Source: an uncultured Myxococcia bacterium (lineage in GTDB: Bacteria; CAZTWC01). Taken from it: DNA of 35,865 bases. Of this stretch, positions 29,136-32,576 are shown in pieces. Both the position numbers and the translations under genes were made by a program. The stretch is from NCBI GenBank assembly GCA_964617105.1, contig CAZTWC010000007.1:1-35865 (forward strand), read 5' to 3'. Under the pieces are notes generated by a model. It was given only the letters and a program-made list of their open reading frames with translations. It had not been told where the DNA came from and did no database searches. Each line of letters starts with the position of its first letter. Position 1 is the stretch's first letter.

Positions 29136-30308
29136 TCAATGTTCTTTCATCAACTTCTTAATAATTTGAGCGGCCTTAGTAGCGGCTGGTTGACCGGAAT
29201 AGAGCATCTGGTTGATGGTGAAGAGTTTGTTGGCGGTTTTTTGGTAGAGTTTCCGGTCTTGGATAAATTTTTTCGCCAGAAAGAATATATTGGCAGCAGT
29301 AGCCTGGCCTTGGATCAGTTCCGGCACCACTCTTTCCCCTAAAATCAGGTTGGGCATAGCAATATGGGGGGTCTTTACTAAAAGGCAGGCCAGCCAGTAA
29401 CTGAGCGGAAACAGCCGGTAAACCACCACCATAGGGATTCCCGCCAGGGCAACTTCCAGGGTGGCGGTGCCAGAGGCAGCGATTACCAGATAAGAGGCTT
29501 GGATTACCTGCCGTGAGTCAACCTCTCCCTGCTCTATTATCTCTATTCCCAGGTTTTTATTTCCAGTCAGACTGTGATCAAATAGAGCCGGATTTACTCC
29601 CCGGGCTTTTAGCAGAGTAAAATTTGTCTCGCCTATTTCATTATTAATTAATTGGCAGGCATTGACCATGGGTGGCAAAAGCCGCTTGACTTCATTGTCG
29701 CGGCTACCGGGCAAAAGCAAAATTTTTTTAAGTGCTCCATTATCTTTAGTTTTTCTCTCCTGAAGGTGATCAAGGGCCAGAGGATGTCCCACCCATTCAA
29801 TTTTTTCCCTATTCACCCCTTTATTCAGGTAAAATTTTTTCTCAAAGGGAAAAAGGGTTATCACCTTTTGGCAGTATTTGCCCAGGGTCTTGGCCCGGTT
29901 GGGACGCCAGGCCCAGATTTGAGGAGATATGTAATATACTAGCCGGGAAAACAGGGCGGCGTATTTCAACAGTCGAAAATTGAAATCTGGAGCATCCACC
30001 AGAATAGTCAAGTGGGGTTTGGAGCAGCGCAGAAAGGTTTTAATTTTATCTAAAAGTTTAAAAATCGAAAATAGTTTACCCAACACTTCAAAAAAACCGG
30101 TAGCGGAAATATGACCGATATCGCCTATCTTACGGCATCCGCATTCTTCCAGGGCATTACCGCCCAGGGCGGAAAATTGAGCATTGGGGAGGATTTTCTT
30201 TATCTCACCCACCAGTTCCGCCGCCCGTTGGTCACCCGAGGTTTCACCGGTGACAATCAGTATATGGGGATTTTTGTTCAAAATATTATTATCCTGGTTT
30301 GCTGACAT
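29136..30308 (-). CDS. lpxB: Lipid-A-disaccharide synthase
   Basis: GETSGD, DAPDFN, YYISPQIWAWR, LFPFE, VGHPL, LLPGSR, ASGTATLE, PELIQ. Confidence 0.96.
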   Translation of the reverse strand: MSANQDNNILNKNPHILIVTGETSGDQRAAELVGEIKKILPNAQFSALGGNALEECGCRKIGDIGHISATGFFEVLGKLFSIFKLLDKIKTFLRCSKPHLTILVDAPDFNFRLLKYAALFSRLVYYISPQIWAWRPNRAKTLGKYCQKVITLFPFEKKFYLNKGVNREKIEWVGHPLALDHLQERKTKDNGALKKILLLPGSRDNEVKRLLPPMVNACQLINNEIGETNFTLLKARGVNPALFDHSLTGNKNLGIEIIEQGEVDSRQVIQASYLVIAASGTATLEVALAGIPMVVVYRLFPLSYWLACLLVKTPHIAMPNLILGERVVPELIQGQATAANIFFLAKKFIQDRKLYQKTANKLFTINQMLYSGQPAATKAAQIIKKLMKEH

Positions 30309-30314
30309 AAAATT

Positions 30315-31133
30315 CTATCTTACCTCCAAGCCATAATTATCCAAATTCAACTCCATCACTTCTGAATCTGTCTGGTCCTGCGCTTTTTTAAGGCCGGAAA
30401 TAATTTTAATTGCCTCCAGCGCAGTCCAGGATGCGGCCAGATTAATGGCGGCTGGTAAAAATAGATCTTGTTTAGCCGGAGGTTTTTTATCACCAGTTTT
30501 CTTTTTTGGTTGCTGACTGCGCTTTTGAGAGTCAACCATCATTTTCTGGTGATGTGGTTGGGTACAAAGGTGTATAGATATGTTCTTAGCAGTAAAGCGA
30601 GTCAAGATAACCGGTGTTTCCGAAGAGAGGGCCGGGAGAATATCCAGAGTAGACCAAAAATTAGGCAGATGGGGGAGATATTGATCAGGTCCTGCCAGGA
30701 TGATGATCAGGTCAATTGGTTCAGGTAACTTTTTGCCAGGACTGATATTGGCAATATCAATTGTGGTGGTATTGGGGTTTAGTTGCTCCAGATAGTTTTT
30801 TATCTGCTTCGAGGTAGTGGCCGCTTTAAGGGCTCCAGGAAATTGTCCGCCAGGTAAATTGTTTGATGCAATTTCAGGAGGTTTGACCCCAGAATGGCAG
30901 CAGTAGTTTATTTGGCCCAGGCCGGCGGCGGCCAGGTAGTATAATAGGGTTTCACCGCCAGGAGGATAATAGACTAAAAGGTGGGCGGATTTTAATTTGG
31001 CCTGGCCTTTATGGCCAAACTCCTGCACCGTGATTTGTCGACTGTAGCGCTCCTGTTCATTAGGGTCTAATTGGCAATGCTCTGATGGTATTTCGGATAA
31101 ATCCTTTTTAAAGGTGGCCATAATTTTCATCAT
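30315..31133 (-). CDS. Degenerate ThiF/MoeB-fold protein: keeps the RYSRQ Arg-finger helix, lacks the ATP-binding motifs
   Basis: EQERYSRQI...GHKGQAKLKSA, YLAAAGLG, LEQLNP, ALEAIKIISG. No GxGxxG, no D..SNLNRQ, no CxxC pairs. The start could be ATG 31121. Confidence 0.8.
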   Translation of the reverse strand: MMKIMATFKKDLSEIPSEHCQLDPNEQERYSRQITVQEFGHKGQAKLKSAHLLVYYPPGGETLLYYLAAAGLGQINYCCHSGVKPPEIASNNLPGGQFPGALKAATTSKQIKNYLEQLNPNTTTIDIANISPGKKLPEPIDLIIILAGPDQYLPHLPNFWSTLDILPALSSETPVILTRFTAKNISIHLCTQPHHQKMMVDSQKRSQQPKKKTGDKKPPAKQDLFLPAAINLAASWTALEAIKIISGLKKAQDQTDSEVMELNLDNYGLEVR

Positions 31134-31905
31134 CCAACTGAGTTATGTTTTTCTGATCTCCACATAGGGGACATAGGGGGTTTCTTTTTATAGGTATGGT
31201 TCTTATTTGATCCTCCAGCCCTTGAAAAATGAGTAGGCGATTGGAGAGCATAGATGCGTGCTCTACTCCAGACAGATATTTTATTGCCTCTATAACTTGC
31301 AAGGCGCCGAGTATACCGGGCATGGGGCCTAATACTCCAATCTCTGCCGGTTTTAACACCACTCCCTCCGGCGGGATTTCTGGAAAAATACAGCGATAAC
31401 AGGCGCTGATTCCCGGAATAATGGTGAGCATTTGTCCGGTGAAAGCCACCACCCCGCAATGGATCAATGGGGTATTGCTCAAGAAGGCGGCATCGTTCAG
31501 CAAAAATTTTATCTCCAGGCTGTCACAGCAATCTATCACCAGGTGGTATGGGGAAAATAGTTCTATGGCGTTTTGAGCATCGAGTTTGTGGGGATATATT
31601 TTCAGATCCAGGCCAGGATTGATGACTCCTATCTTTTCTGCTGCCGAGTCAACTTTAAGCCGGTCTATATCGCTGGTGTTGTGTAAAATTTGCCGGTTAA
31701 GATTGCTGATCTCCACCTGGTCGTAGTCAATTAATCCCAAATGCCCCAGCCCAGATTGGGCCAGGGCAATACAGACAGTAGAGCCCAAGCCGCCGGCGCC
31801 GACTACCAGAATTTTAGCTGCGGTCAGGGAAGTTGGAGTTTTATGATTCTGCATGAAGCCATGGTTCGAGGCCGGACACTGCCGGACACTGCCGGTTATT
31901 TCCAT
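31108..31905 (-). CDS. ThiF/MoeB/HesA family E1-like adenylyltransferase
   Basis: ILVVGAGGLG, IDYDQVEISNLNRQ, KVD, VIDCCD, CYRC and CPLC zinc sites. The start could be ATG 31854. Confidence 0.93.
   Translation of the reverse strand: MEITGSVRQCPASNHGFMQNHKTPTSLTAAKILVVGAGGLGSTVCIALAQSGLGHLGLIDYDQVEISNLNRQILHNTSDIDRLKVDSAAEKIGVINPGLDLKIYPHKLDAQNAIELFSPYHLVIDCCDSLEIKFLLNDAAFLSNTPLIHCGVVAFTGQMLTIIPGISACYRCIFPEIPPEGVVLKPAEIGVLGPMPGILGALQVIEAIKYLSGVEHASMLSNRLLIFQGLEDQIRTIPIKRNPLCPLCGDQKNITQLDDENYGHL
31871..31895. repeat. 10-bp tandem repeat (gccggacact x2.5)
   Basis: gccggacact gccggacact gccgg. Confidence 0.8.
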
Positions 31906-31936
31906 AATTTTGTTACAAAGTGAAGACAGTATTTAG

Positions 31937-31986
31937 TGCCCGTCCGAGAATCCACCTCGTCTCGAGAATTTGGATTTCGGGCGGCA
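31937..31986. repeat. Intergenic palindromic element, copy 2
   Basis: ccgtccgagaatcca...tggatttcgggcgg hairpin; homologous to 25331-25372. Confidence 0.6.
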
Positions 31987-31991
31987 ACTAT

Positions 31992-32576
31992 TTAAAATGG
32001 AAAAAACATACCTACTTTATTCTTGTATTCCCGGTAATCCTCAGGATGTTCCCTGGATATCAGATCCTCTTCCAGTTGGGCTTTGTGGAGTAGCACTGGC
32101 AGGTAGATAATAACCACAAAGGTAACGGCCAGGTAGGACATTAGAGCCAGGGCGATTCCGAGTTGTAAAAAGATATCTCCCACATATATAGGGTGGCGCA
32201 CCAGGGCAAAAGGCCCCTCCTGCACAACTTTTCCGTCTGATAAGAGTTCTGCACCAGGAGAGTAATATCGATCCAGGGTTTTCATGGCCCAGGCTTCCAG
32301 AAAAATACCGAATATCAAAATAGCCAGCCCCATGCCGCGAAGCAGGATTAGCAATTTATCGCTTGAGGTAAATATTCCTACATTAAAAAAGGCCAGGAAG
32401 GTAAAAAATATGGCTACCAGACCGAAAATTCTAGACCAGCGGCTAATCCAGGATATCTCTTTTTTAATACCAGGATTAGTTTTTTTTCTTAACTGGTAGT
32501 GAATAGACCATAGCCAGGTAAATCCACCTAGCCAAATCATAGCAATTAGCAATTTGTACAACTCTAAGGAATGCAT
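31992..32576 (-). CDS. Isoprenylcysteine carboxyl methyltransferase (Ste14/PEMT-like) membrane protein
   Basis: Hydrophobic helices, VVQEGPFALVRHPIYVG, EEDLI...YREYK..V.MFFP. Confidence 0.9.
   Translation of the reverse strand: MHSLELYKLLIAMIWLGGFTWLWSIHYQLRKKTNPGIKKEISWISRWSRIFGLVAIFFTFLAFFNVGIFTSSDKLLILLRGMGLAILIFGIFLEAWAMKTLDRYYSPGAELLSDGKVVQEGPFALVRHPIYVGDIFLQLGIALALMSYLAVTFVVIIYLPVLLHKAQLEEDLISREHPEDYREYKNKVGMFFPF

Follow-up and report, generated by a model that had tools for sequence, protein, structure and literature searches.

The stretch of DNA analysed here (the window) comprises 35,865 nucleotides (nt) from an uncultured Myxococcia bacterium (assembly GCA_964617105.1, contig CAZTWC010000007.1, positions 1-35,865 of the forward strand). 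Its minus strand carries two overlapping open reading frames (ORFs) of the ThiF family: ORF A encodes an active adenylyltransferase of the ThiF/MoeB type, and ORF B, which lies between ORF A and lpxB, encodes a degenerate paralogue that we refer to as a pseudo-E1 (Table 1). MoeB and ThiF are the textbook symmetric ancestors of the ubiquitin-type activating enzymes (E1s), and an asymmetric pair is usually seen as a eukaryotic innovation. We consider it probable, if some way from assured, that A and B together make up a two-gene, asymmetric, heterodimeric E1-like adenylyltransferase. That the pair would be obligate is less certain.

The two ThiF-family genes and what each retains

ORF A matches the Pfam ThiF profile (PF00899) with 224.2 bits (E 1.8e-66, against a cut-off of 28.1). 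In a sequence search of the PDB it finds E. coli ThiF (1ZUD, E 7.5e-42) and MoeB (1JW9, E 1.9e-37), and also Sae2 and UBA3. It is not nameable as MoeB or ThiF specifically because it falls below the equivalog cut-offs of NCBIfam (222 against 449 bits for MoeB NF006444, 192 against 275 for ThiF TIGR02356 and 215 against 450 for the SAMP E1 UbaA NF047750). The Pfam match begins only at profile position 17, and those to 1ZUD and 1JW9 begin at their residues 26-28. We checked individual residues against two alignments, one of 19 and the other of 114 homologues. Besides the loops, catalytic Asp and zinc motifs listed in Table 1, ORF A retains Asp60/Asp62 and Lys84 in both alignments, and its residues G36-G41, R71, K84 and D128 fall on invariant columns among the 19 homologues. 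What it does not have is the N-terminal helix with the RYSRQ motif that carries the arginine finger: only two of the 11 family-conserved columns of the N-terminal block are kept, none of the three reading frames across 31800-32000 encodes an RYSRQ-like stretch, and a stop sits ten codons upstream of the ATG.

This loss of the finger helix appears to be unusual, because an RYxRQ-type motif ([RK][YFW]x[RK][QHN] before the Gly loop) is present in 115 of the 120 proteins that match A best in the database. Among the five without the motif, one is A's own variant and three look like short gene calls. The motif-less protein P0274, considered as a further truncated example, has a mis-called start; extending the frame upstream makes its 40-odd relatives in genome contigs full length. 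Of the loci inspected in this way, only L064 (see below) proved to be a genuine split pair. The closest relatives of A (52-54% identity, some of them from named Nitrospiria metagenome-assembled genomes) are ordinary enzymes of 275 amino acids (aa) beginning MAFTEEQLVRYSRH. The best non-self match, P0160 (462 aa), was considered as a fusion and set aside: about 190 of its residues occur twice in exact copy, its contig measures 2986 nt, and an assembly artefact is probable.

The start of ORF A is itself uncertain. An alternative ATG at 31854 (Met18), used by one public gene call, would give a protein of 248 aa, and the public calls (the alternatives being P0281 and P0159) begin at three places, MEITG, MSGSV and MQNHK, with no helix gained in any. 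The string 'SVRQ' near the start might have been a remnant of RYSRQ, but a tandem repeat encodes it and it lies four residues out of register in a MAFFT alignment, so that it is most likely there by chance. As a separate observation, P0159, the gene call of a 99%-identical copy, begins MSGSVRQ where the window has MEITGSVRQ, which, judged from the protein, would fit one more copy of the repeat and a GTG start. An extra copy would put the upstream ATG out of frame, and the true start may be Met18.

ORF B scores 26.6 bits on the same Pfam profile (E 3.9e-6), just under the cut-off, with a match that is colinear over profile positions 1-206; nearly all of its score against MoeB-type models stems from residues 21-80. 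It keeps nine of the 11 conserved columns of the N-terminal block (R29, Y30, S31, R32, I34, G40, G43, Q44 and K46). Its Gly loop is degenerate (YYPPG-GE), and the Asp/Asp pair, the Asn, Arg and Gln of NLxRQ and all four zinc Cys are absent. Alternative starts lie at 31130 and 31121. The N-terminal block is therefore complementary between the two proteins (9/11 in B against 2/11 in A), as are the Gly loop, NLxRQ, Lys, Asp and four Cys that A keeps and that are mostly absent in B. A second complementary mark is the Tyr of the xYLAAAG helix that follows the Gly loop, present in 114/114 full-length homologues, replaced by Ala47 in A and retained as Tyr66 in B. As in heterodimeric E1s, the adenylation site is intact in just one of the two subunits.

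On the motifs other than the Tyr, our alignments bear out a sequence-only reading of the window. That reading had given both ORFs these positions and called them overlapping (by 26 nt on the minus strand, as we find), had described A as having a Gly loop, NLNRQ, the Asp and zinc sites with no RYSRQ helix and no Cys in the crossover loop (Pro186 where 110/114 homologues have Cys), and had described B as keeping RYSRQ...GQAKL with no working Gly loop, NLNRQ or zinc sites.

ORF B appears to be an intact gene. All of its 272 codons are open, and its codon usage scores +0.21 bits/codon in the ORF's own frame, whereas the two alternative frames score -0.28 and -0.51 (ORF A scores +0.16); even the degenerate middle, residues 82-220, scores +0.14. 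We also weighed the possibility that it is no gene, or that the arrangement is an artefact of assembly. The genome is metagenome-assembled (4.07 Mb, 489 contigs, 96.5% complete) and its depth in the runs compared is about 3-5x, which would lend this idea some credit, and none of the runs listed as containing the stretch is an RNA run. Against it, two studies provide four marine metagenome runs (X1, X3, X4 and X6, of which two are a possible source of this DNA or assembly) whose contigs bridge the A/B junction with 100% identity; three public gene-call pipelines predict ORF B; and its homology to ThiF is colinear over the whole fold. We therefore regard either possibility as very improbable. 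An attempt at population variation (the ratio of non-synonymous to synonymous polymorphism, pN/pS) found zero differing letters between the window and the contigs of the four runs.

As to its source, of the 72 residues of A that its family seldom has, ORF B shares eight, compared with none to four in ten outgroup sequences, and among the shared rare residues is a Thr just after the Gly loop, where 114/114 homologues have Pro. This hints, and is suggestive only, that the duplication giving rise to B took place within the lineage of A. A and B also end in similar C-terminal tails (LDDENYGHL and LDNYGLEVR, respectively), which were considered as a duplication scar and rejected, because the positions are not homologous in the alignment.

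Table 1. Coordinates of the A/B genes, their diagnostic residues and the adjoining genes in the window.
Feature	Positions	Strand	Remarks
ORF A, active ThiF/MoeB-type adenylyltransferase, 265 aa	31108-31905	minus	
ORF B, degenerate ThiF paralogue (pseudo-E1), 272 aa	30315-31133	minus	
A/B overlap, end of A and start of B	31108-31133	minus	26 nt; 14 nt if B starts at 31121
A tandem repeat, 10 nt, perfect, 2.5 copies	31871-31895		In the first codons of ORF A; encodes 'GSVRQC'
A Gly loop, G36-A-G-G-L-G41	31783-31800	minus	Alignment to homologues
A Ala47, position of the family-invariant Tyr	31765-31767	minus	Tyr in 114/114 homologues
A phosphate-binding loop, N68-L-N-R-Q72	31690-31704	minus	Arg71 aligns with MoeB Arg73 (naming from PMC13139853)
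A Asp128	31522-31524	minus	Aligns with the catalytic Asp (MoeB Asp130, named as in PMC13139853); D in 19/19
A zinc motif 1, C169-Y-R-C172	31390-31401	minus	Alignment
A Pro186, crossover-loop Cys position	31348-31350	minus	Cys in 110/114 homologues
A zinc motif 2, C245-P-L-C248	31162-31173	minus	Alignment
B residues 28-47, ERYSRQITVQEFGHKGQAKL, N-terminal helix kept	30993-31052	minus	Family spacing; alignments
B Arg32	31038-31040	minus	Aligns with MoeB Arg14 and ThiF Arg11
B Tyr66, family-invariant Tyr of the xYLAAAG helix, kept	30936-30938	minus	
lpxB	29136-30308	minus	Start 7 nt past the ORF B stop
ICMT/PEMT-type membrane methyltransferase	31992-32576	minus	Directly upstream of ORF A
Cys-rich ORF, 431 aa	32596-33891	minus	No Pfam match

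A sole E1, and split E1s in Candidatus Binatia

ORF A is the only full ThiF-family gene in the genome, the other matches being ORF B and the Gly-rich loop of FtsZ. On other contigs the genome has three genes of the ThiS/MoaD family whose products end in a GG tail: a ThiS of 67 aa that immediately precedes thiG and thiE, a MoaD-like protein of 82 aa whose gene follows one resembling aldehyde:ferredoxin oxidoreductase, and a further MoaD-like protein, of 99 aa, encoded in a cluster together with another such oxidoreductase gene, a ferredoxin and a flavoprotein (gene names at these loci are our reading of the translations; the ThiS-family match alone was tested). MoaC is also present. Our ORF and Pfam reading of the window found no carrier or sulfurtransferase gene adjoining the A/B pair. 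The sequence-only reading, which had seen no GG-tailed gene nearby, was to that extent right, and with three such genes elsewhere in the genome and a single E1 it was too pessimistic in calling the substrate unknown. Because A is the sole E1 and ThiS/MoaD genes need one, A is the presumptive activator of ThiS and of both MoaD-like carriers.

That reading had also not recognised the architecture as one characterised in bacteria. It is not confined to this genome: a split E1, which the papers searched do not describe, occurs in sulfur-carrier operons (CysO/CysM-type) of Candidatus Binatia. At one locus in a metagenome-assembled genome of that class (L064, 3438-7692) the order is active E1, ThiS-family gene, pyridoxal phosphate (PLP) enzyme, pseudo-E1 and ATP sulfurylase. 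The active E1 has no RYxRQ, its Pfam match beginning at profile position 9, and the ThiS-family product ends AIAGG. The pseudo-E1, a ThiF-like protein of 253 aa, contains MLTESQIARYSRQ; its Gly loop is dead (VAGGGEM) and NLxRQ is missing. Pseudo-E1s of this type, with the same features, make up at least 38 database clusters (224-276 aa), and in public annotation the Binatia proteins are named as active 'molybdopterin/thiamine biosynthesis adenylyltransferase'.

A search of 101 genomes of the class gave 15 places besides L064 that matched from the N-terminus of the query, and 14 of these were examined (G119 was left out). A pseudo-E1 is present at 13 of the 14, the exception (L109) having ordinary E1s instead. 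With L064 included, 12 of the 14 pseudo-E1 loci have a same-strand active E1 with no finger motif in the open frame and a profile match that starts from position 19-31; of the remaining two, L117 has its partner truncated where the stretch stops, and in L122 the contig ends. Pairs lie 2-4 kb apart (L064 and L110-L121), and the gene content between them was checked by Pfam in L064. The Tyr follows the helix: it is found in none of the 12 truncated active E1s (Ala in nine; His, Thr and Ser in one each) and in 50 of 52 pseudo-E1s (12/14 at the loci and 38/38 database clusters).

At the level of sequence, A/B thus shows the two-part signature of the Binatia family, whose dead subunit has clearly been maintained: in both, the active E1 has neither the RYxRQ helix nor the Tyr and the pseudo-E1 keeps both on a dead Gly loop. 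In other respects this case differs. The genes overlap and have no carrier operon, in contrast to the ThiS-family and PLP genes that separate the L064 pair; B is much more degenerate, having lost its zinc sites where the L064 pseudo-E1 keeps its Cys pairs; and A is the only E1 of its genome, whereas the L064 genome (G041) also has full-length ThiF genes.

Whether the two arrangements share an origin is a separate matter, and here several comparisons point against it. ORF B does no better on a pseudo-E1 profile (53.9 bits) than on an active-ThiF profile (54.8 bits), BLASTP aligns B with the L064 pseudo-E1 over residues 22-52 only, that is the helix, and the identity of A is 43% with the L064 E1 compared with 52-53% with full-length enzymes. 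A quick maximum-likelihood tree (66 rows) groups the 12 truncated E1s in a single clade (Shimodaira-Hasegawa-like approximate likelihood ratio test, SH-aLRT, 97) and places A among full-length enzymes on a long branch of 1.73. Joining A to the truncated clade is not rejected by the approximately unbiased (AU) test (p 0.49, difference in log likelihood 0.44), which leaves either history plausible.

The predicted complex and the proposed part of ORF B

Modelling of the complex, which the sequence-only reading had proposed, separates the heterodimer from its controls. With self-made alignments of 20 rows for A and ten for B, the A:B model has an ipSAE (interaction score from predicted aligned errors) of 0.93, 0.97 and 0.93 in three runs, against 0.00, 0.00 and 0.04 for the controls; among reference cases, 58 of 80 solved complexes attain the ipSAE mark used, as do 2 of 110 mismatched pairs. 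Agreement between the runs is at least 82% of contacts, with a partner pLDDT (predicted local distance difference test) of at least 66. B residues 25, 28-33 and 35-39, the RYSRQ helix, are placed on A residues 66-73, the SNLNRQ loop. B residues 62-71 lie against A 70-73 and 194, with Tyr66 touching A 73 and 194 beside the NLNRQ loop, and the B helix 224-243 lies on A 187-205. The conserved columns that B has kept are concentrated in this predicted interface, 14/21 against 21/62 elsewhere in the 19-homologue alignment (Fisher p 0.011). The model thus indicates that B still resembles a dimer partner, short of proving binding. Together with the pattern of losses, it suggests that the Tyr, like the finger, may act on the site of the partner.

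On the heterodimer reading, A would be the catalytic subunit, binding ATP and adenylating the C-terminal Gly-Gly of ThiS and of the two MoaD-like carriers, and B a catalytically dead paralogue taking the place of the second protomer of a MoeB/ThiF homodimer. B would lend in trans its N-terminal helix, with the arginine finger Arg32, and would bring Tyr66 beside the phosphate-binding loop of A. The overlapping frames would favour coupled and roughly equimolar synthesis of the two proteins.

There are several precedents for parts of this scheme. In APPBP1-UBA3, which serves NEDD8, and Sae1-Sae2, which serves SUMO, one adenylation-dead and one active ThiF-fold subunit likewise share a single composite ATP site, to which the dead subunit supplies the Arg. 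An AlphaFold2 (AF2) monomer model of B, searched with Foldseek, matches Sae1 and APPBP1 chains (6cwz_C and 3dbr_E), ranked below ThiF 1ZUD (E 9e-11, TM score 0.56-0.65), Uba4, MoeB and MccB; the model was built from a ThiF alignment, so this fold match is not independent of the alignment. Unlike the eukaryotic E1s, A/B has no catalytic-Cys domain, ubiquitin-fold domain (UFD), E2 (conjugating enzyme) or thioester step, and for that reason would be an enzyme of the sulfur-carrier type. Its catalytic domain is in these terms that of E. coli MoeB-MoaD (1JW9) and ThiF-ThiS (1ZUD), with the same Gly loop, Arg, Lys, Asp and zinc Cys, and the genome likewise has GG-tailed ThiS and MoaD genes for carriers. 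The difference from these enzymes is that their protomers are identical and each lends Arg14 (MoeB) or Arg11 (ThiF) to the other (PMC13139853), whereas here the live protein has lost helix, invariant Tyr and loop Cys, and a separate dead paralogue has the helix and the Tyr.

Two further systems come close. In yeast Tcd1-Tcd2, a paralogous ThiF-like pair that makes ct6A (cyclic N6-threonylcarbamoyladenosine), the less active Tcd1 lends its arginine finger, Arg59, to the catalytic Tcd2; the pair differs from A/B in being eukaryotic and mitochondrial, in acting on tRNA and in having extra C-terminal domains (PMC13139853). BilD, of the Bil antiviral operons, is a bacterial E1 in which an inactive and an active adenylation domain form a pseudo-dimer, but within a single chain that also has a Cys domain and an E2 partner and conjugates a Ubl (ubiquitin-like protein) to targets (PMC10557695). 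According to that source, bacterial E1-like enzymes are known as homodimers with single-chain BilD as the exception, all other known bacterial E1-like proteins being stated to be homodimeric. In the full-text literature (a coverage outside which subscription journals and supplements fall) we found no description of a two-gene, active-plus-dead MoeB/ThiF enzyme in bacteria, and nothing on heterodimers of CysO-type adenylyltransferases.

A number of observations weigh against the heterodimer. The arginine fingers of MoeB (Arg14) and ThiF (Arg11) are reported not to be essential, E. coli TcdA has no arginine finger at all, and a finger mutant of yeast Tcd1 lost just 26% of product ratio (PMC13139853, 2026). 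Across 109 family-conserved columns of the 114-homologue alignment, B does not significantly keep what A has lost (14/36 versus 19/73, p 0.19), and the same holds outside the N-terminal block (8/27 versus 17/71, p 0.61). The AF2 monomer model of B is of moderate quality, with a mean pLDDT of 64.8. The complex has the interface of MoeB/ThiF dimers, and its score may reflect likeness to the solved homodimers; A, for its part, retains its own dimer helices, so that an A:A homodimer is possible. MoaE was not found in the genome, which leaves the role of the MoaD-like genes unsure. Finally, ORF B has no recognisable relatives. A word-indexed search of 5.8 billion proteins returned itself and ordinary MoeB/ThiF proteins at E >= 1e-6. 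A full HMMER search of 1.84 billion representatives gave 275 matches at E <= 1e-3, of which only B itself fell below 1e-10 and 20 of the 20 inspected keep the Gly loop or are fragments, and a scan of metagenome contigs found none. Members of its database cluster differ from the window's B by one residue. The absence of relatives does not prove that B is young, because the genome is the sole sampled member of its phylum: in a collection of 199,900 species the phylum holds this genome alone, and the 40 relatives offered are related only at the domain level. As a side observation and a lead only, the ESM Atlas clusters nearest B are degenerate ThiF-like proteins of 200-233 aa from Myxococcota and Binatota (scores 0.92-0.94).

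These points bear most directly on the alternative in which A acts alone, as a homodimer with neither finger nor Tyr, and B is a leftover of tandem duplication whose function is lost or being lost. Dispensable fingers in MoeB and ThiF and the fingerless TcdA (PMC13139853) would permit it, and B has the look of a decaying copy: its aligned identity with A is no more than 18%, BLASTP of one against the other gives two short matching segments only, the zinc sites are gone, its model has low-confidence stretches at residues 82-102 and 208-218, and no homologue was found. However, a stop-free frame of 272 codons with in-frame codon usage is unexpected for a gene so decayed; by hand arithmetic at about 44% GC, a random frame of that length would be open about once in 10 million. 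The segments that B keeps (the finger helix, the YLAAAG helix and the C-terminal interface helix) are also non-randomly those of the predicted contacts, as the Fisher test above indicates, and the Binatia pseudo-E1 family provides a case of dead copies that are maintained. We consider this alternative unlikely.

A different possibility is that B does bind A, but as a regulator or specificity adaptor that governs the choice of carrier, restricts the dimer to one site or docks a sulfur donor. The complex model would support binding of this kind, one E1 must serve at least three carrier genes, the crossover loop of active enzymes is replaced in B by a Lys-rich insert (at about residues 200-220), and a regulatory role has been proposed for yeast Tcd1 (PMC13139853). 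Yet nothing indicates a particular regulatory input, the residues kept complete the ATP site of the partner rather than form a new surface, and no carrier or sulfurtransferase gene adjoins the pair. On balance we think this explanation rather improbable.

The heterodimer is preferred because the complementary N-terminal block, the Tyr, the Binatia parallel, the complex model, the open frame of B, the sole-E1 status of A and the precedents all favour it; among these, the sequence features and gene arrangement, the sole-E1 status and the Binatia parallel are direct observations. The sequence-only reading had put forward an obligate pair of active and pseudo subunits with a composite site. Motif loss, the Tyr, the Binatia loci and the modelled placement of the helix speak for the pair and its site, and 'obligate' is the part that did not stand: since the finger is reported to be non-essential in MoeB and ThiF (PMC13139853), A could work without B. 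A fuller version, which we hold tentatively and would call possible more than probable, is that an obligate two-gene E1 runs all sulfur-carrier activation in this deep-branching marine bacterium, for the thiamine thiazole and for the pterin cofactor. It would have arisen by tandem duplication and complementary degeneration, independently of Binatia and of the eukaryotic E1s; in every case the live subunit alone would have lost the finger helix and the Tyr, and the dead subunit alone would have retained them.

Neighbouring genes and wider meaning

Of the genes around the pair, the methyltransferase upstream of ORF A has weak NCBIfam matches, one of them to LmtA, which methylates lipid A in Leptospira (32 bits, where the cut-off is 325). 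With this gene on one side and lpxB on the other, a role in envelope lipids is conceivable. The 431-aa ORF beyond it has a signal-peptide-like start, a linker rich in Gly, Ser, Asn and Thr, and many repeated modules of the CxxxC type. A scan for promoters and terminators gave no more than background.

A two-gene bacterial E1 offers a small and tractable system in which to ask why E1s turn asymmetric and what the finger helix and the Tyr contribute, and A/B also bears on whether duplication followed by complementary loss locks paralogues into obligate pairs. Such questions are easier to pose where, as here, the pair includes the sole housekeeping E1. There is a practical side as well, because pseudo-E1s that are automatically annotated as active adenylyltransferases mislead the reconstruction of pathways. 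Should A/B prove to be an obligate pair of independent origin, asymmetry in E1s would be an outcome that has evolved repeatedly and can be predicted, and the Tyr would be a so far unrecognised element acting in trans on the ThiF/MoeB site.

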